Assembly (NCBI GenBank): GCA_016180235.1
Contig: JACPBQ010000002.1
Location: 2,206-66,205 of the forward strand
Reading direction: 5' to 3'
DNA length: 64,000 nucleotides
Source: Candidatus Woesearchaeota archaeon
GTDB taxonomy: Archaea > Nanobdellota > Nanobdellia > Woesearchaeales > GW2011-AR4
The translations under genes were made by a program, and so were the position numbers. Shown here one piece after another: positions 1 to 52,513 of the stretch (position 1 is its first letter; each line of letters begins with the position of its first letter). Under the pieces are notes generated by a model. That model saw only the letters and a program-made list of their open reading frames with translations, ran no database searches and was not told the DNA's origin.

Positions 1-2185
1 CTTTCTCGGCTTCCTCATCAACCATATCAAAAGAAGGCCATTTTGAAAGATGTATGCTTTTTGCTTTTTCATATTTTTTGAAATACTGCTGGTATAATTC
101 CTCGGTTATGAAAGGAGTGATAGGCGCCATTAATTTCATTATTGAAAGCAGAGTATGGTATAAAGTATATTGCCCACTTAATTTCCCGTTTTTGCCCCTT
201 TTCTCAACATTGTACACCCTGTCCTTTACAATCTCAAGGTAATTGTCGCAGAACATGTGCCAGAAGAACTTGTCTGCTTCCAGTTTTGTATGGGAGTATT
301 CATAATTCATGAAATTTTCAGTCGATTCTTTGATTAATTTGCTTAATTTTGATAAAATCCAAATATCAATTATCTCAAGTTTTTTCGGCTTTTCAGATTT
401 GTAGTCGGAAAGATGCATAAATGTGAACTTGGAGGCATTCCATATTTTTGTTGCAAACTTAGTCCCTGTAATCAGGTCCTTTTCCTGGAACGGCAGATCA
501 TCCCCTAATCTGCTTCCTGCTGCCCAGAATCTCAAAGCGTCGGCAGAATATTTTTTTATCATCTCCCTGGGATCAACGACATTCCCCTTTGACTTTGACA
601 TTTTCTTGCCGTGAGGATCCAAAGCCCATCCGGAAATCATCGTGCTTTTCCATGGAATGCTTTGATGGTGGAAATAGCTCTTGACAACGGTATTAAAGAG
701 CCAGAAAGTGATAATGTCATGTGCCTGCGGCCTTAAGTCCATCGGCAATAATTTTTTATAAACAGCTTTATCCTTGAATAATTCAATTGCGATATCCGGT
801 GTTAATGAAGAAGTTGCCCATGTGTCCAAGACATCTTTTTCTCCTATAAATTCATTTGAGCCGCATTTGCAGCTTTTTAGCGGCTTATCAGCCAGCGGAT
901 CGACAGGTAATTGTTTCTCTTCCGCAACAATAATCTCATTGCATTTCCTGCAGTACCAAACAGGTATGGGAACTCCAAAATGCCTTTGCCTTGATATATT
1001 CCAGTCCCATTTAAGGCCTTCAATCCAGTTCTCATACCTTGCCCTCATATGGTCCGGGTACCATTTTATCTTCCTGCCATATTTTATGAAATCCGCTTTC
1101 AAATCCAAATATTTTATGAACCACTGGTCTGTATTCAATATCTCAATATCCGTTTCGCACCTTTCATGCACATTGACAACATGGTGTATAGGCTCTATCT
1201 TCTCTATCCTGTTTTCCTCTTCCAAAGCCTTTATTACAGCTTCCCTTGCCTTTTTGACATGCAGGCCTTTGAATTTTCCGGCTTTCTCATTCAAAATTCC
1301 GTCTTTGTTTAAAATCTCTATCGGCTCTATCTTGAGTTCTTCCAGCCATTTTACATCATCCATGTCCCCATAGGTGCAGTGGTAAACAATACCTGAGCCG
1401 AATTCCATGTCAACATCCTTGTTTGCTGTAATTTTGACTTCCCTGTCAGAGAAAGGTATTTTTGCTTTTTTTCCAATTAATTTATTGAACCTTTTGTCAT
1501 CAGGATGTATGTGTATCGCGACGCATGCTGGCAATAGTTCAGGCCTTGTTGTTGCTATCGTTATTTGTTTGCCCACATCTGTGTCAAATTTCATGTAAAC
1601 CAATCTTGAATCTCTCTCACTGTCTTTCATCTCTACCTGGGCTATAGCCGTCTGGCATTCAGGGCACCATACAAAAGGCGCTCTTTTCCTGTAAATCCTG
1701 TCTTTCTTATACAAATCAATAAAGCTTCTTTGGGATATTCTTTGGGAATGCTCGTTGATTGTCGTATAGAATATGCTGTAATCGGCGCTTACTCCGATCC
1801 TTTTCCAGTCATAAACAAAATCCGGCCTTATCTCTTCAAGAGTCTTTAAGCATAGATTTACAAAATCCTTCCTCTCCATTTTCTGTCCCTTGACATTCTT
1901 CATCTTCTCTATCATCCTTTCCGTTGCCAGGCCATTATCATCAGTGCCAAAAGGATAGAATACGTTCTTGCCAATCATTCTCTGGAATCTTGCAACAAAG
2001 TCCTGCTGGGAATAAGAAAAACTATGTCCGAGATGCATCTTCCCGCTTACAGTTGGCGGGGGAGTGTCTATGGAATAAGCCTCCTCTTTGCTGTCAGGAT
2101 TAAATAGATATACTTTCTCCTTCTCCCAGTATTTGAGCCATTTCTCCTCGGATTCATTAGCATTGTAGCGCTTTGGCAGTTCCAT
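1..2185 (-). CDS. valS: valyl-tRNA synthetase (C-terminus cut by window edge)
   Basis: Absent from the ORF track because it runs off the window. Reverse translation from the ATG (complement of 2183-2185) reads MELPKRYNANESEEKWLKYWEKEKVY..DTPPPTVSGKMHLGH (HIGH-type)..WNISRQRHFGVPIPVWYC..KMSKSKGN (KMSKS)..FCDNYLEIVKDR, typical of archaeal ValRS. The + strand ORFs at 423-1598 are its antisense shadows. Confidence 0.9.
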   Translation of the reverse strand, partial: MELPKRYNANESEEKWLKYWEKEKVYLFNPDSKEEAYSIDTPPPTVSGKMHLGHSFSYSQQDFVARFQRMIGKNVFYPFGTDDNGLATERMIEKMKNVKGQKMERKDFVNLCLKTLEEIRPDFVYDWKRIGVSADYSIFYTTINEHSQRISQRSFIDLYKKDRIYRKRAPFVWCPECQTAIAQVEMKDSERDSRLVYMKFDTDVGKQITIATTRPELLPACVAIHIHPDDKRFNKLIGKKAKIPFSDREVKITANKDVDMEFGSGIVYHCTYGDMDDVKWLEELKIEPIEILNKDGILNEKAGKFKGLHVKKAREAVIKALEEENRIEKIEPIHHVVNVHERCETDIEILNTDQWFIKYLDLKADFIKYGRKIKWYPDHMRARYENWIEGLKWDWNISRQRHFGVPIPVWYCRKCNEIIVAEEKQLPVDPLADKPLKSCKCGSNEFIGEKDVLDTWATSSLTPDIAIELFKDKAVYKKLLPMDLRPQAHDIITFWLFNTVVKSYFHHQSIPWKSTMISGWALDPHGKKMSKSKGNVVDPREMIKKYSADALRFWAAGSRLGDDLPFQEKDLITGTKFATKIWNASKFTFMHLSDYKSEKPKKLEIIDIWILSKLSKLIKESTENFMNYEYSHTKLEADKFFWHMFCDNYLEIVKDRVYNVEKRGKNGKLSGQYTLYHTLLSIMKLMAPITPFITEELYQQYFKKYEKAKSIHLSKWPSFDMVDEEAEK

Positions 2186-5955: not shown

Positions 5956-6393
5956 ATGCAGGTAAAAGACTTAAAGCCGAGGCAGGGAAAGGTTGACATA
6001 GAGCTCGACATAGTTGATATGGGCGAAGTAAGGGAATTTGAGAAATTCGGAAAAGCAGGAAGGGTGGCAAACGCAATAGCAAAAGACGAGACAGGAGACA
6101 TTAAGCTGACTTTATGGAATGATGATATTGAAAAGATAAAATCAGGGGATAAGATAAAAATCACAAATGGCTATGTTTCCGAGTGGCAAGGGGAAATGCA
6201 GCTTTCAACAGGCAAATTCGGGACTATGGAAGTACTAGGGGAAAGCAAGGAAGCAAAAGAAGAAGCTACAAGCCCTCCAAATGAAAAAGAGGGCAAAAAA
6301 GCCTACCGGGAATCAGAAGAGAACTTTAAGAAAATAGAGGAAAAGCTTGAAGAAGAGCCTGACTTTGATGAGGAAGAAGTCAAGGACGAGTAA
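5956..6393 (+). CDS. OB-fold single-stranded DNA-binding protein with acidic C-terminal tail
   Basis: N-terminal roughly 95 aa looks like a single OB fold (GKVDIELDIVDMGEVREF..GDIKLTLWNDDIEKIKSGDKIKITNGYVSEWQGEMQLS). It is followed by an E/K-rich linker and the acidic tail DFDEEEVKDE, as in SSB proteins. Confidence 0.6.
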   Translation: MQVKDLKPRQGKVDIELDIVDMGEVREFEKFGKAGRVANAIAKDETGDIKLTLWNDDIEKIKSGDKIKITNGYVSEWQGEMQLSTGKFGTMEVLGESKEAKEEATSPPNEKEGKKAYRESEENFKKIEEKLEEEPDFDEEEVKDE

Positions 6394-6448
6394 GCGAAAG
6401 TAATTTAAATCAATTCTTTTTCTGAAATTAATGTCTGAGCAAAATTTA

Positions 6449-6661
6449 GGGATTTGATAAGCGCATGTTTTATCAGACTAAAAACCGTAGCTCAGACTGA
6501 GAAGACTGAGGTCTTCGGCTAAGGAGAGCATTTCAAAAATCTCAAACTACGCTGAAGACGTAGGTGATTGGTACAGGTATACTGGCCAACTTAAATCCTG
6601 GGTTCAAATATCCCAGAGGGCCATTAAAATCCCTCAGGATTTGAAATTCCCAGCGGTCCCA
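6449..6661 (+). tRNA. tRNA-Phe(GAA), interrupted by about five insertions (or a decayed pseudogene)
   Basis: Acceptor GGGA(6449-6452)+CCG(6485-6487) pairs with CGGTCCC(6654-6660), discriminator A. D-stem GCTC/GAGC. Perfect anticodon arm CTACG-CTGAAGA-CGTAG (6547-6563). T-arm CTGGG-TTCAAAT..CCCAG. Exon pieces sum to 74 nt and insertions to 139 nt. A T-run follows. Confidence 0.6.
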
Positions 6662-15975: not shown

Positions 15976-16548
15976 ATGCTGAACAAGAGCGAATTTGGGA
16001 AAATAAGGCAGGAGCTGGCCAGGACTGAGGAAAGGAGGGAATATGTCATTCAGCTGTCCAGGGAGATAATAAACCTGTCAAAGAGGATAATTTATGCCCT
16101 GCACAGGGATGATGTCAGGGAAGCAGATTCATTGATAAAAGAGATAGATTCTAAAAAGGGTTCTCTGCTGAAAAACAACATAAAGCTCGACATCAATATA
16201 GACCAGGTTGCTTTGCAGGAGTATGTGGAAGCCTTATGCTATTACCATTTTATTAAAAACAGGAAGATCCCGGACAAAGCTGCCCTGAAAGTGGACAGCG
16301 AAAGCTACCTGCTTGGCTTGTGCGACCTTAGCGGGGAGCTTGTAAGGAAAGCTGTGAATGAAGTTGTAAAAAACAATTTTGATATAGCTTTCGGGATAAA
16401 GGGCCTTGTCGAGGAAATTTATGATGAGTTTTTGAAGTTCAACCTGAGGAACAACGAGCTGAGGAAGAAATCCGACCAGATAAAATACAACCTGATAAAA
16501 TTGCAGGATGTCATTTATGAGCTTAAGATGAAAGGTAAATTAAAATGA
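15976..16548 (+). CDS. translin-family nucleic-acid-binding protein
   Basis: QEYVEALCYYHFI and YLLGLCDLSGELVRKAV match the translin/TRAX signature (Y-L-x-G-x-x-D-L-x-GE-L-x-R). 190 aa, all-helical. Confidence 0.75.
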   Translation: MLNKSEFGKIRQELARTEERREYVIQLSREIINLSKRIIYALHRDDVREADSLIKEIDSKKGSLLKNNIKLDINIDQVALQEYVEALCYYHFIKNRKIPDKAALKVDSESYLLGLCDLSGELVRKAVNEVVKNNFDIAFGIKGLVEEIYDEFLKFNLRNNELRKKSDQIKYNLIKLQDVIYELKMKGKLK

Positions 16549-18302
16549 GGCTTAAAAGGACAAGCACATGCGGGGAGCTTGGAAAGAAGGATATCAGGAA
16601 AGAAGTTTGCCTGGCAGGATGGATTCAGTCATCAAGAGACCATGGAGGCATTATTTTTATTGATTTAAGGGACAGGTATGGGCTTACCCAGGCAGTTTTT
16701 GACCCCAAGCATGACAGGAAAACACATAAGGAAGCTGAATCATTAAGAAGGGAAGATGTAATTTCAGTTAAGGGCAAAGTCAGGGCTCGCGGCAAAGGCC
16801 TTGAAAACCCCAATCTTAAGACAGGAGAGATAGAGGTTCTCGCAGATGAATTGGAAATTCTGAGCAGGGCTGAGACGCCGCCTCTTGAAGTTGAGGACAG
16901 GGTTGATGCCGGAGAGGAACTAAGGTTAAAGTACCGCTTCCTGGACTTGAGAAGGCCTAAGATGCAGAATCATTTATTGATAAGGCATAAGGCTGCGCAG
17001 GCTGCCAGGGAATATCTGAACAAGAATAATTTCCTGGAGATTGAAACTCCGATGCTGGTAAGGGCAACTCCCGAAGGCGCCCGTGATTATATTGTTCCTT
17101 CAAGAGTAAATCCTGGCAAGTTTTACGCACTGCCCCAAAGCCCTCAATTGTACAAGCAGATTCTCATGGTTTCAGGCTGTGACAGGTATTACCAGCTGGC
17201 CAGATGCTTGAGGGATGAGGACTTGAGGGCAGACAGGCAGCCTGAGCACACTCAGATAGATCTGGAAATGAGCTTTGTTGCGCAGGAAGATGTTTTGGAG
17301 ATGGTAGAAGGCCTGTACAAGCACATGATGAAATCTGTTTTAGGCATTGACATCAAACACAAATTCCCGAGGCTGTCGCACAAGGAATCAATGGACAAAT
17401 ACGGGACAGACAAGCCTGACTTGAGATTTGGCCTTGAGCTGATTGATGTAACCGATATTGTAAATAGTTCGGATTTTGAGGTTTTTAAGAAAGCCGAGCA
17501 GGTAAAGTGCATCAATCCGGAAAAGGATTTCAGCAGGAACGAGCTTGACAGCTACATCAGTTTCTGCCAGCAGAACGGCGCCAAGGGAATGGCCTGGATG
17601 AAAGTCACAGATAAAGGCCTGGAAAGCAACATTGTGAAATTTTTTAACAATAATCTGCAAAAGAAGATTCTTGAGAAAACGAAGGCAAAAAAAGGCTCTA
17701 CTTTGATGTTCATTGCAGACAAGCCAAAAATAGCTGCTGCAATTTTGGACAAATTAAGGCTCAAATTGAGGGACGATTTAAAATTGGTCAAAGGCAATGA
17801 TTTCAGGTTCTGCTGGATTGTTGATTTTCCCCTGTTTGAATGGGATGAGGAAAATGGGAAATGGGAAGCATCGCATCATATTTTTACCGCTCCAAAAAAA
17901 GAGCACATTCATCTGTTGGAAAAAGAGCCTGGAAACGTCTATGCTGATTTATATGATTTGGTTCTTAATGGGATAGAGTTAGGATCCGGAAGCATAAGGG
18001 AGACAAATCCTGAAACTCAGCAGAAAGTCATGAAAGTCATCGGCATCAAAAAGGAAGACGCGATAAAAAAATTTGGGTTTTTGATGGAAGCTTTCAAATA
18101 TGGAACTCCGCCGCATGGAGGCATAGGCCTGGGCTTTGACCGCATTGTAGCGTTAATGTGCGGCTATAACGACATAAGGGAAGTGATTGCATTCCCAAAA
18201 AACAAGAACGCAGAATGCCCGATGGACGGCTCTCCAAGCGAAGTTGATGAAACGCAATTGAAAGAGCTGCATATTAAGAGTGATTTGGTGAAGAAAAAAT
18301 AA
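16545..18302 (+). CDS. aspS: aspartyl-tRNA synthetase, bacterial-type (585 aa with insertion domain)
   Basis: GWIQSSRDHGGIIFIDLRDRYG (bacterial AspRS N-terminal OB), CLRDEDLRADRQPEHTQIDLEMSF (motif 2) and HGGIGLGFDRIVALM (motif 3). ATGA overlap with translin. Confidence 0.9.
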   Translation: MRLKRTSTCGELGKKDIRKEVCLAGWIQSSRDHGGIIFIDLRDRYGLTQAVFDPKHDRKTHKEAESLRREDVISVKGKVRARGKGLENPNLKTGEIEVLADELEILSRAETPPLEVEDRVDAGEELRLKYRFLDLRRPKMQNHLLIRHKAAQAAREYLNKNNFLEIETPMLVRATPEGARDYIVPSRVNPGKFYALPQSPQLYKQILMVSGCDRYYQLARCLRDEDLRADRQPEHTQIDLEMSFVAQEDVLEMVEGLYKHMMKSVLGIDIKHKFPRLSHKESMDKYGTDKPDLRFGLELIDVTDIVNSSDFEVFKKAEQVKCINPEKDFSRNELDSYISFCQQNGAKGMAWMKVTDKGLESNIVKFFNNNLQKKILEKTKAKKGSTLMFIADKPKIAAAILDKLRLKLRDDLKLVKGNDFRFCWIVDFPLFEWDEENGKWEASHHIFTAPKKEHIHLLEKEPGNVYADLYDLVLNGIELGSGSIRETNPETQQKVMKVIGIKKEDAIKKFGFLMEAFKYGTPPHGGIGLGFDRIVALMCGYNDIREVIAFPKNKNAECPMDGSPSEVDETQLKELHIKSDLVKKK

Positions 18303-22394: not shown

Positions 22395-22763
22395 ATGAAA
22401 CCCCTGTTGACAAAAGAAAATTTCAAATGCGACCGCTACTGCGGCGAGTGCTGCAAAAAGATGCTTGTGGCTGTAAGCAATAAAGACATAAAAAACATTG
22501 AAAAGCTCGGATATAAGAAAGAGAGTTTCGTGATGAAAGATGTGTTTAACTCAAAAAGAAAATTCCTGAAAAAGGAGGAGAATGGGTGGTGCGTTTTCCT
22601 GGAAAAAGAAAAAGACGGCAAATACTCCTGCAAAATCCACAAGGACAGGCCGGAAGTATGCCAAAAATACCCTTTCTTTCCCGGAACTCCAAAGGAAATA
22701 AAAAGCTGCCTGCCTGAGGATTTGTATCCGAATGTGTTTTTTAAGATGCCTTCAAGGAAATAA
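22395..22763 (+). CDS. YkgJ-family cysteine-cluster protein (UPF0153)
   Basis: CDRYCGECCKK cluster near the N-terminus plus C..H....C downstream (YSCKIHKDRPEVCQKYP). TATA-like gtttttataattt at 22363-22375. Confidence 0.65.
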   Translation: MKPLLTKENFKCDRYCGECCKKMLVAVSNKDIKNIEKLGYKKESFVMKDVFNSKRKFLKKEENGWCVFLEKEKDGKYSCKIHKDRPEVCQKYPFFPGTPKEIKSCLPEDLYPNVFFKMPSRK

Positions 22764-48809: not shown

Positions 48810-48953
48810 GGGCCCGTGGTCTAATCCGGCATGACGTTTCCTTCGCAGGGAAAAGACTCCGGGATGCTCGAAATTAGTTTTTCGGCACGGAAATTCAAAT
48901 ATCCCAGAGGGAGACTGCAAATCCATTGGGTTTTGAGAGTCCCGGCGGGTCCA
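48810..48953 (+). tRNA. tRNA-Ala(CGC) with two insertions flanking the T-loop
   Basis: GGGCCCG/CGGGTCC acceptor with G3:U70 (alanine identity pair). D-arm GTC-TAATCCGGCAT-GAC. Anticodon arm TTTCC-TTCGCAG-GGAAA. T-stem CCGGG(48859-63)/CCCGG(48941-45). TTCAAAT at 48894-48900. Insertions of 30 and 40 nt, and 74+70=144 nt. Confidence 0.75.
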
Positions 48954-48967
48954 TTTCAATTTCAAAA

Positions 48968-50164
48968 ATGCCAGCCTGCAAATCAGTTTATGAGCCAAGG
49001 GAAGACAGCACTATGCTGGAAAAGCATGTCAGAAAGCATGCTAACGGCCAGGTTTTGGACATGGGCACCGGCTCTGGGATACAGGCAATAACAGCCACTT
49101 ACAACAATAACGTAAAATCAGTAATAGCATTGGATATACAAGAAGAGGTTATTGAGCATTGCAAAAAAAACATTGTTAACGATAAAATAAGTTTTTTGAT
49201 TTCCGACTTGTTTGAAATATTTAAAAAAAACAAATCATTGAAAAATAAAAGGTTTGACACAATAATTTTCAACCCCCCTTACCTACCGGAAGACATCAAG
49301 CTGAAAGACCTGACATTGGACGGGGGAAAAAAAGGCTATGAGGTCATTGAAAGATTCATAAACAATGCAGGCAATTATCTAAAAAAAGACGGGATAATCC
49401 TTATTGTTTTCTCTTCCCTGACAAAAAAGGATAAAGTTGAGGAATTCATAAGAAACAACTTGTTTGAATTTGAATTATTGGAAAAAAAGGTTTATTTCTT
49501 CGAGCAATTGTACGTTTACAAGCTAAAAAAATCAGACATATCAAAAAAATTAGACAGCAATGGCATAAAAAATATAAGGTATTTCTCAAAAGGAAAACGA
49601 GGATTCATATTCACAGGCACTTTAAAAAACAAAAAAATTGCAGTTAAGATAAAAAACCCAAAAAGCGATGCAGTTTTAAGGATAGAAAACGAGATAAAAT
49701 TCCTGAAATTGCTGAATAAAAAGAAAATCGGGCCTAAATTATTGTTTTCTGGCAATGATTTTCTTGCTTATGAATTTGCTGATGGCGTTGCATTTATAGA
49801 TTTCTTGGAAAACAAAAAAAATGATAAAAAAATAGCATTAAGGATAATAAAAAGCATTTTTGGGCAATTATTTGAGATGGATAAGCTAAAAATCAACAAA
49901 GAGGAGATGTCGCATCCGCAAAAGCATATTATCATAAGCAATAAAAACAGGCCCGTATTACTGGACTTCGAGAGAGCCCATCATGTTAAGAATCCCGGCA
50001 ATGTCACCCAGTTTTGCGATTTTTTGATATCGAAAAAAATAGCGAATATGCTGAAAAAGGGCAATATTGGGATAAATAGGGTGAAAATGATAAAAGCTGC
50101 TAAAAAATACAAGAAAAATCAGAATAAAGTAAACTTTATGAATATTATTAAGGAGCTAAGATGA
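48968..50164 (+). CDS. fusion protein: Mtq2/HemK-like glutamine-N5 methyltransferase plus Bud32/RIO-like atypical kinase domain
   Basis: N-half: VYEPREDSTML, VLDMGTGSGI, IIFNPPYLP (NPPY). C-half: GKRGFIFTG..KIAVKIK (P-loop plus Lys), AYEFADGV, HPQKHIII..PVLLDFERA (catalytic or DFG-like). ATG at 48968, 15 nt after the tRNA-Ala 3' end. Confidence 0.7.
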   Translation: MPACKSVYEPREDSTMLEKHVRKHANGQVLDMGTGSGIQAITATYNNNVKSVIALDIQEEVIEHCKKNIVNDKISFLISDLFEIFKKNKSLKNKRFDTIIFNPPYLPEDIKLKDLTLDGGKKGYEVIERFINNAGNYLKKDGIILIVFSSLTKKDKVEEFIRNNLFEFELLEKKVYFFEQLYVYKLKKSDISKKLDSNGIKNIRYFSKGKRGFIFTGTLKNKKIAVKIKNPKSDAVLRIENEIKFLKLLNKKKIGPKLLFSGNDFLAYEFADGVAFIDFLENKKNDKKIALRIIKSIFGQLFEMDKLKINKEEMSHPQKHIIISNKNRPVLLDFERAHHVKNPGNVTQFCDFLISKKIANMLKKGNIGINRVKMIKAAKKYKKNQNKVNFMNIIKELR

Positions 50165-52293: not shown

Positions 52294-52513
52294 GCCGACG
52301 TCGCATAACCTGGCATTGCGGTGGCCTTGAGAGCCACTTCCCGTAAGGGTATCTCGGTCAGCTTTTTTGCTTGCGCAAAAAACCTGGGAAAAACAGGGAA
52401 TTCCTCGTTTTTGCCCGGAATTCAAATTGCAGAGTAAGCAAATAGCTGGAGAAATTCAAATATCCCAGAGGGCAGCTAAAATCCCTCGGGATTTGGGAGT
52501 CCGGGCGTCGGCG
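52294..52513 (+). tRNA. tRNA-Ser(UGA), class II, with two insertions around the T-loop
   Basis: Acceptor GCCGACG/CGTCGGC, discriminator G. D-arm GCA-TAACCTGGCAT-TGC. Anticodon arm GTGGC-CTTGAGA-GCCAC. Long variable arm (CCC-gtaa-GGG). T-stem 3' CCGGG (52501-05). TTCAAAT at 52455-61. Insertions of about 97 and 39 nt. Confidence 0.7.

Follow-up and report, generated by a model that had tools for sequence, protein, structure and literature searches.

A family of putative bulge-helix-bulge introns at position 59/60 in tRNA genes of DPANN archaea

Three tRNA genes in a 64,000-nucleotide stretch of DNA (the window) are interrupted in the T-loop by related inserts of 39 or 40 nucleotides. These are very likely bulge-helix-bulge (BHB) introns located between tRNA nucleotides 59 and 60, and they belong to one old family present in archaea of the Woesearchaeota/Nanoarchaeota type (DPANN). 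The inserts form a sequence family, occupy a strict position and show BHB geometry; perfect mature tRNAs result when the genes are spliced in silico, and intron-less orthologues exist. The window is archaeal by content, with genes for TFB, a family B DNA polymerase, an S-layer protein, ribosomal protein S6e, RFC and several aminoacyl-tRNA synthetases, and its GC content is about 40%.

An earlier note on this DNA had described related insertions of about 40 nucleotides in three tRNAs, and motif counts, alignment and a covariance model all bear this out. The same 18-mer, TTCAAATATCCCAGAGGG, stands without variation at 6603, 48894 and 52455, each time with a related 3′ half after it. The core sequence ATCCCAGAGGG has exactly three matches on the + strand (6610, 48901 and 52462), and with one mismatch allowed there are four matches versus 0.91 expected, a number reached by 0 of 100 shuffles. 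When 240 nucleotides around each site are aligned, a single block is common to all three (TTCAAATATCCCAGAGGG...AAATCC...GG.TTTG..A.TCC), extending from TTCAAAT to the 3′ strand of the T-stem, and the flanks are otherwise unrelated. Searching the window with a covariance model of the element recovers these three copies and no others, at 70, 52 and 48 bits. The model's next match there, at 20.6 bits, lies inside coding sequence, and matches at 967-1009 and 22681-22731, both on the − strand, were dismissed as false positives in coding or non-tRNA sequence. The point of insertion is ambiguous by one T. The location originally given for each insert is right, but its exact borders are shifted by the best placing, 59/60, which puts the introns at 6609-6647, 48900-48939 and 52461-52499. 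One of the T-stems also had to be corrected, as the 5′ strand in tRNA-Ser is CTCGG (52353-52357) and not CCCGG.

No gene with a family intron is recognised by ARAGORN or by the Rfam tRNA model, even where that intron is the only one. ARAGORN reports zero tRNAs on the raw 64-kb window, and Rfam returns nothing at gathering score, with no match at the three sites to any family, self-splicing introns and ribozymes included, even at an E-value of 10. Because both programs are blind to the raw window, the identities of the host tRNAs can be demonstrated only after in-silico splicing, and the genes were parsed by hand with the BHB rule. The hosts initially read as tRNA-Phe, tRNA-Ala and tRNA-Ser then prove to be Phe(GAA), Ala(CGC) and Ser(UGA). 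In ARAGORN, the joined tRNA-Phe exons give a perfect cloverleaf of 74 nt. Splicing of tRNA-Ala likewise yields 74 nt in cloverleaf form, bearing the alanine identity pair G3:U70, and the tRNA-Ser product is a class II cloverleaf of 84 nt that has G73 and a long variable arm. As a separate observation on intron types, forty nucleotides is too short for a group I or group II intron.

A BHB motif consists of a 4-bp helix between two 3-nt bulges. Canonical introns have anticodon bases one and two inside that helix (Yoshihisa 2014), which implies cleavage after the second nucleotide of the bulge. Applied to the 59/60 introns, this rule gives the elements listed here, in which signed numbers are intron positions and a caret marks the splice site.

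h: the T-stem, 49-53 with 61-65
H: U54 U55 C56 R57 with U(-6) G(-5) R(-4) R(-3)
Bulge 1: A58 A59 ^ U(+1)
Bulge 2: A(-2) G(-1) ^ U60, with AT^T in tRNA-Phe
h′: AUCC/GGAU, internal loop CA/A, GAGGGA/UCCCUC and a loop of 7-9 nt, with U(-7) unpaired

With zero free parameters, the two cuts predicted by the rule leave a T-loop of exactly 7 nt. All three family copies have the complete BHB arrangement, with H paired 4/4, two 3-nt bulges, the T-stem as h and the hairpin as h′. The proposal that the T-loop insertions have BHB geometry was therefore sound, although the motif had been called relaxed, with a 2-3-nt bulge 4-5 bp away, and the helix is in fact the canonical 4 bp (54-57 with -6 to -3). Pairing TTCAAAT with ATTTGAR over 7 bp, as had also been suggested, would leave the second bulge 7 bp away and bury the 5′ splice site. 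A slight relaxation is found elsewhere: h′ in the family is offset by one unpaired U (two in tRNA-Ala), making the 5′ site a 3x1 internal loop and not a pure bulge.

The same rule accounts for all interruptions in the three window genes, which are as follows.

6391..6410, + strand: box TAAGCGAAAGTAATTTAAAT upstream of tRNA-Phe, containing the TATA-like TTTAAAT
6449..6661, + strand: tRNA-Phe(GAA) gene, six exons at 6449-6451, 6484-6499, 6523-6529, 6546-6566, 6596-6608 and 6648-6661
6452..6483, + strand: tRNA-Phe 3/4 intron, 32 nt; H 4/4, leader TTA plus G1 with CTAA; bulges GG^A and AA^A; h′ 9 bp
6500..6522, + strand: tRNA-Phe D-loop intron between G18 and G19, 23 nt; H 3/4; bulges TG^A and AA^G; h′ GAAGAC/GTCTTC, 6 bp
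6530..6545, + strand: tRNA-Phe 25/26 intron, 16 nt; H 4/4 (GAGA/TCTC); bulges GC^A and AA^A; h′ 3 bp
6567..6595, + strand: tRNA-Phe 46/47 intron, 29 nt; H 4/4; bulges TG^A and AA^T; h′ 5 bp
6609..6647, + strand: family intron copy 1, tRNA-Phe 59/60, 39 nt, TATCCCAGAGGGCCATTAAAATCCCTCAGGATTTGAAAT; H 4/4 (TTCA/TGAA); bulges AA^T and AT^T; h is the 5-bp T-stem
48810..48953, + strand: tRNA-Ala(CGC) gene, exons at 48810-48863, 48894-48899 and 48940-48953
48864..48893, + strand: tRNA-Ala 53/54 intron, 30 nt; H 4/4, T48 C49 C50 G51 with CGGA; bulges GG^A and AA^T; h′ 4 bp
48900..48939, + strand: family intron copy 2, tRNA-Ala 59/60, 40 nt; H 4/4; bulges AA^T and AG^T; 52 bits
52294..52513, + strand: tRNA-Ser(UGA) gene, exons at 52294-52357, 52455-52460 and 52500-52513
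52358..52454, + strand: tRNA-Ser 53/54 intron, 97 nt; H 4/4 (TCTC/GAGA); bulges GG^T and AA^T; h′ CAGCT/AGCTG, 5 bp
52461..52499, + strand: family intron copy 3, tRNA-Ser 59/60, 39 nt; H 4/4; bulges AA^T and AG^T; 48 bits

The nine window introns comprise the three family copies and six further BHB introns, with five in tRNA-Phe alone; in tRNA-Ala and tRNA-Ser, the second intron at 53/54 parts the 5′ strand of the T-stem from TTCAAA. Scoring BHB motifs had been proposed in the earlier note as a check, and we scored each intron by pairing the four exon bases that end 2 nt before the 5′ splice site with intron positions -6 to -3, together with an intron hairpin of at least 3 bp. All nine introns fit (H 4/4 in eight and 3/4 in one, every h′ at least 3 bp), versus 1.9% of random site pairs in the window, and their 3′ bulges are AA^N, AG^T or AT^T. 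The tRNA-Ser 53/54 intron was also removed by the automated BHB search.

The 4-bp register is confirmed by introns outside the family. Using the element covariance model, we found eight more 59/60 introns in the loci fetched from genomes that carry the family, of 25-43 nt and with unrelated interiors. They share the frame of the family (T-stem 5/5, H 4/4, bulges AA^N and AG^T), and in 7 of the 8 A58 cannot pair with -7 and the helix is exactly 4 bp. In family members a competing pairing is open to A58, A59 and U(+1), with U(-7), U(-8) and A(-9) as partners, and minimum free energy (MFE) folds and the RNAalifold consensus often favour the 7-bp TTCAAAT/ATTTGAR helix or a shifted register. The 7-bp helix conceals the 5′ splice site and is impossible in seven of the eight non-family introns, and for these reasons we do not accept it as the conformation that is spliced. 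The BHB-constrained fold has a mean of -19.3 kcal/mol versus -21.2 for the MFE, an average gap of 1.9 kcal/mol.

In an alignment of 47 introns, which was fitted to the model and so leans towards the structure, H is paired in 98.9% of cells, and the variation at -3 and -4, which face U54 and U55, is nearly all from one purine to another. The exon side is invariant and H contains no two-sided covariation; four pairs of the inner stem are changed on both sides. In essentially all of 40 distinct copies the interior folds best as the long hairpin according to RNAfold, and compensatory changes are seen in this structure. This hairpin (ATCC/GGAT plus GAGGGA/TCCCTC) beats one formed by AAATCC/GGATTT in 40 of 40 sequences, by a mean of 11.7 kcal/mol. 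The shorter hairpin, drawn in the earlier note as AAAATCC/GGATTT, is compatible with the sequence but on these energies is rejected as the main fold. It is possibly an alternative conformer, judging from a C:G to U:A switch in five copies from metagenomes.

Comparison with related genomes supplies the empty sites. Loci L001/L050, L023, L034/L039, L015 and L038 are syntenic with 4.3-11.4 kb of the window, and their proteins share 56-80% amino-acid identity with window ORFs by BLASTP. The tRNA-Phe genes of this group carry the following introns.

Window: 3/4, 18/19, 25/26, 46/47 and 59/60
L034/L039 and L023: the 59/60 family intron only, with the other window junctions contiguous (AGACTG^GGA, GAGC^A, GTG^TC)
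L001: 37/38, plus a 46/47 intron homologous to that of the window, and no 59/60 intron

The 3/4 intron is missing from L034, L023 and L001, the D-loop site is the uninterrupted AGACTGGGA in the orthologues, and the 25/26 intron is likewise missing from them. At 46/47, L001 has a homologous intron of the same 29 nt at the same site, and L034 and L023 have none. Family intron copy 1 is kept in L023 and L034/L039 and is absent from L001, where the T-arm reads uninterrupted as ATGGGTTCAAATCCCAT. An empty-site orthologue thus exists for each of the five window tRNA-Phe introns (5/5), with the exons joined exactly at the predicted junctions. Given that the orthologues differ in their tRNA-Phe introns, intron content turns over among close relatives, a pattern of presence and absence that gives no direction.

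An alternative is that the insert is retained in the mature tRNA as a structural expansion, tolerated because residues 59 and 60 face away from the folded T-loop. On general knowledge of T-loop structure, insertions within the loop are best tolerated at 59/60. We nevertheless judge this reading very unlikely. The flanks form a canonical BHB motif whose cuts restore the exact 7-nt T-loop, the same genes have inserts in the acceptor stem, D-loop and T-stem that a working tRNA could not tolerate, inserts at 59/60 range from 25 to 43 nt with unrelated sequence, and one orthologue has no insert.

Likewise, the failure of ARAGORN and Rfam to accept the loci, and the heavy interruption of the window genes, might suggest decaying tRNA pseudogenes or a dispersed tRNA-derived repeat of a MITE- or SINE-like kind. 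This we regard as extremely unlikely given the state of the exons, which are nearly identical to those of orthologues: mature tRNA-Phe differs from that of the syntenic L034/L039 locus solely at one compensated pair, 6:67. Identity elements are intact, namely G3:U70 in tRNA-Ala and both G73 and the long variable arm in tRNA-Ser. The box at 6391..6410 is also found before the orthologous tRNA-Phe in L023, L034/L039 and L001, its conservation marking it as the probable promoter of tRNA-Phe, and T-rich trailers accompany the window tRNA loci. Copies scattered as a repeat would be were not found either. Three core-motif searches of 311 kb, comprising the fetched loci and the window, gave no family copy outside T-loops and only a lone 9-mer, and neither ARAGORN nor the covariance model detected tRNA genes in the window beyond Phe, Ala and Ser. 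The interval at 11.4-11.8 kb of the window was considered as a further site, as L001 carries two tRNAs there; none is present in the window.

The distribution of the family was assessed with two patterns. In a genome collection, AATATCCCAGAGGGN{3,10}AAATCC matched 31 loci, of which 23 are archaeal and fall in 18 species-level assemblies labelled mostly as Woesearchaeota, Nanoarchaeia or Nanoarchaeota. Every one of the archaeal loci (23/23) sits between TTCRAA and the 3′ strand of the T-stem plus acceptor. The eight bacterial matches have no T-loop context, and their number is near a rough estimate of about nine chance matches. In metagenomes, a pattern that fixed only the frame, GGTTCAAATATN{28,36}TTTGAGAGTCC, returned 19 contigs, and all 19 contain the same family with the core GGGAGAC..CAAATC, several with compensatory changes in the stems. 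The question raised at the outset of whether the element also occurs outside tRNAs is thus answered by T-loop context in 23 of 23 archaeal and 19 of 19 metagenome matches. A dispersed repeat or MITE would be expected in varied contexts, and we discarded this class on finding all copies in the T-loop. A scan of viral contigs gave zero matches, and a viral origin of the family was rejected on that basis.

After intron removal, ARAGORN identifies host tRNAs for Gly (CCC, UCC and GCC), Met, Leu(GAG), Arg(UCU) and Phe, to which the window adds Ala and Ser. The family therefore has hosts of at least seven amino-acid identities in 18 genomes, which agrees with the original suggestion of one intron lineage spread across non-homologous tRNAs. 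Automated BHB calls suggest more identities and are less reliable: the beam search resolved about half of the loci with some doubtful calls, and we relied on hand-checked cases and those with zero extra introns. The loci also contain tRNAs for which the pattern had not selected: eight of these have a non-family 59/60 intron and about six have none at all. Family copies share a mean pairwise identity of about 84% (0.85 within genomes versus 0.84 between them), a level of conservation that is partly ascertained because each collection pattern had some of the family sequence built in. Sharing a genome does not make two copies more similar, and this comparison shows no recent movement or homogenisation within genomes. 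The spread among genes accordingly looks old rather than recent.

How the introns would leave the transcript, by which enzyme they would be cut, and how they passed between genes we infer from the sequences. In the precursor, the T-stem would serve as h, while U54 U55 C56 R57 would pair with intron positions -6 to -3 (U G R R) as the 4-bp H, and the remainder of the intron would fold as the long hairpin h′ with one unpaired U at -7. The splicing endonuclease EndA is predicted to cleave each bulge between its second and third nucleotides, at A59^U and G^U60, and an RNA ligase of the RtcB type would then join A59 to U60, restoring the 7-nt T-loop UUCAAAU. For tRNA-Phe, the expected spliced junction is ...GGGTTCAAA^TCCCAG.... 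The released intron of 39-40 nt would probably be circular, with an expected circle junction of ...TTTGAGAG^TATCCCAG.... Neither EndA nor RtcB is among the 40 window ORFs of at least 150 aa that were scanned with Pfam, with some 18 listed ORFs lying outside that scan; an alpha4 EndA with an L3 loop has been reported in DPANN archaea. For tRNA-Ala and tRNA-Ser the scheme has an additional demand. The 53/54 motif takes T-stem bases 49-51 into its own H and so is incompatible with the T-stem pairing required as h by the 59/60 motif, which implies ordered or alternating folding; the T-stem could form only once the 53/54 intron is out.

The site itself may explain the range of hosts. The exon half of the motif, UUCR-AA plus the T-stem of the tRNA concerned, is nearly identical in all elongator tRNAs, and an intron bringing only YGRR-AG and a hairpin would be spliceable from any tRNA gene without co-adaptation. 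Since this exon half is universal, one lineage could occupy many non-homologous tRNAs, and the restriction to such a site offers a concrete explanation for intron spread among unrelated tRNAs.

The frame does not, however, explain the interior. Given that eight unrelated 59/60 introns share the frame and have other interiors, splicing does not account for the conserved GGGAGACCACAAATCCC and stems of the family. A modest explanation is slow drift under a pairing constraint combined with search bias. A further reading, which we consider unlikely, is that the family is a portable and still mobile BHB cassette on the invariant T-loop, with an interior hairpin that serves mobility or a trans-acting (circular) RNA and not splicing. 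If that were true, a defined universal target site would be a first for a BHB intron, and the mechanism of intron gain in archaea would become testable.

The excised RNA could also have a job of its own, with BHB splicing still releasing it as a probably circular 39-40-nt RNA or a hairpin. Possible jobs are protein binding, action in trans, or holding the T-loop helical so that other introns splice first. This would account for a GGGAGACCACAAATCCC that splicing alone does not require, as the eight unrelated introns are apparently spliceable too, and for the return of family members only (19/19) by a metagenome pattern that fixes the frame and leaves the interior free. Identity of about 84% both within and between genomes is the pattern expected under constraint, and the loop retains the consensus GAC...CAAA. 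We nonetheless rate such a job as distinctly unlikely, in view of several opposing observations. No known RNA family matches; a C box (RUGAUGA) and a D box (CUGA) are absent from the three window copies and from the consensus, and no Rfam snoRNA match was obtained. The stems accept compensatory changes, the loops of the window copies vary (CCATTAAAA, GAGACTGCAAA and CAGCTAAAA), the tRNA-Phe of L001 lost the intron or never had it, and both search patterns bias the sample to conserved copies. On balance, a function for the excised RNA is possible, being neither supported nor excluded by these data.

Returning to the BHB introns as such, one close precedent is the 'large-scale intron transposition' proposed for tRNA introns of the Thermoproteales (Fujishima et al. 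2010, as summarised in PMC4090602 and PMC4033280). According to these summaries, both cases involve non-canonical BHB introns, multi-intron genes are common in both, and in both the spread between genes is deduced from sequence alone. Similar introns occur in tRNAs of different identity there, as they do here (Gly with three anticodons, Met, Leu, Arg, Phe, Ala and Ser). However, the host here is a mesophilic DPANN archaeon of the Woesearchaeota type with roughly 40% GC. As far as the summarised accounts extend, the present case also differs in that a single family is limited to 59/60, with the universal T-loop as its exon motif, and is found in at least 18 species-level genomes rather than in seven related species.

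Non-canonical BHB intron sites, 59/60 and 3/4 included, were already known. A BHB junction at 59/60 in the T-loop is also present in the permuted tRNAs of Thermofilum pendens and Cyanidioschyzon merolae (Chan et al. 2011, PMC3218864), but those genes are circularly permuted, have short linkers and concern few tRNAs, whereas the genes described here are collinear and a conserved 40-nt intron recurs in many tRNAs. That 59/60 serves as a BHB junction in those organisms as well agrees with the explanation offered above for the choice of site. The tRNA-Trp intron of Euryarchaeota, which carries a box C/D guide RNA (cited in PMC4090602), resembles the family in being an archaeal intron conserved beyond the needs of splicing. 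As that citation presents it, the tRNA-Trp intron lies at 37/38 of one tRNA and has the C and D boxes of a methylation guide, while the family has neither these boxes nor an Rfam match.

Intron-rich tRNA sets have been reported in the Asgard Atabeyarchaeia and Freyarchaeia (PMC11291895), and disrupted tRNAs have been noted in DPANN archaea, where 'unidentified disrupted tRNA genes' were suspected (Kaneta et al. 2018, PMC5829648). In the available text of these two papers, as in our loci, most tRNA genes are interrupted, often non-canonically and by several introns, and predicted DPANN tRNA sets are incomplete; the same text describes neither a conserved intron family nor a favoured 59/60 site. 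We found no description of this family, or of a favoured 59/60 site in DPANN archaea, in the literature outside subscription journals.

Nanoarchaeota and Woesearchaeota genomes have been reported with 26-54 tRNAs (median 35) and with Trp or Val 'missing'. These incomplete sets, and the disrupted genes suspected by Kaneta, may partly reflect genes like those described above; the reports used tRNAscan-SE 2.0 in its archaeal mode. A covariance model of the 59/60 frame would recover hidden tRNA genes of this kind. The tRNA-Phe loci of close relatives constitute a natural series for intron gain and loss, and the loci as a whole offer defined substrates for DPANN splicing endonucleases, including the mutually exclusive 53/54 and 59/60 motifs. 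The window tRNA-Phe, with its five BHB introns, exceeds the maximum of three stated for archaeal tRNA genes in the available parts of the published accounts.

The tRNA-Phe gene in the window is divided to an unusual extent, and two further tRNA genes carry a second intron within the T arm:

6449-6661, tRNA-Phe(GAA), with six exons and five bulge-helix-bulge (BHB) introns (3/4, D-loop, 25/26, 46/47 and 59/60)
48864-48893, 53/54 intron of tRNA-Ala
52358-52454, 53/54 intron of tRNA-Ser

For archaeal tRNA genes, the maximum stated in reviews and in the tRNAscan-SE 2.0 paper is three introns. Among loci retrieved from genome and metagenome collections by pattern scans for the 59/60 intron, the syntenic orthologue of this tRNA-Phe gene (L001 39-154, also L050 11251-11366) has a canonical 37/38 intron and a 46/47 intron in common with the window but is without the 59/60 intron, and the tRNA-Phe genes of L034, L039 and L023 carry the 59/60 intron only. 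On these sequence comparisons, the intron content of tRNA-Phe evidently turns over among relatives whose flanking proteins are 76-80% identical.

The central helix of both 53/54 introns takes nucleotides 48-51, and thus positions 49-51 of the T-stem 5' strand. In the predicted structures, the 53/54 and 59/60 motifs of tRNA-Ala and tRNA-Ser are mutually exclusive and could not form simultaneously, which would imply that the two precursors are spliced in a set order. Within the 97-nt tRNA-Ser intron, GCCCGGAATTCAAAT (52413-52427) resembles another T-stem 5' strand with a T-loop, perhaps the remnant of a duplication or of an earlier exon.

For the 59/60 intron itself, the small 3' hairpin (AAATCC/GGATTT) proposed in the earlier note is still possible as an alternative conformer, because wherever a C in AAATCC has become U (L032, L035, L037, L044 and L046), a G in GGATTT has become A as well. 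However, the long hairpin (ATCC/GGAT plus GAGGGA/TCCCTC) is much more stable.

Genes with this intron can be found only in part, which can lead to wrongly bounded annotations, as with a 72-74-nt tRNA-Arg called by both ARAGORN and Rfam (L022 5537-5610, minus strand) whose 3' end falls within the intron. The listed TTG start of a methyltransferase ORF (48926-50164) overlaps the tRNA-Ala 3' end (48953); the true start of this ORF is probably further downstream. A weak covariance-model match to the 59/60 element at 967-1009 (minus strand), which scores 20.6 bits and whose 'bulges' read AAT and AGT, was rejected as a chance match to what is apparently coding sequence, judged by eye from its translation.

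For L023, L015, L018 and six more loci under a Methanosarcinales label, the record titles read 'uncultured Methanosarcinales archaeon' and 'Candidatus Aminicenantes bacterium'. Nevertheless, both L023 and L015 share synteny, at 56-79% amino-acid identity, with the window as well as with loci of Woesearchaeota type, and we consider the labels or binning doubtful. In the window, the aspartyl-tRNA synthetase (16545-18302) contains a GAD domain, a feature associated with the bacterial-type enzyme; the rest of the gene set is archaeal.
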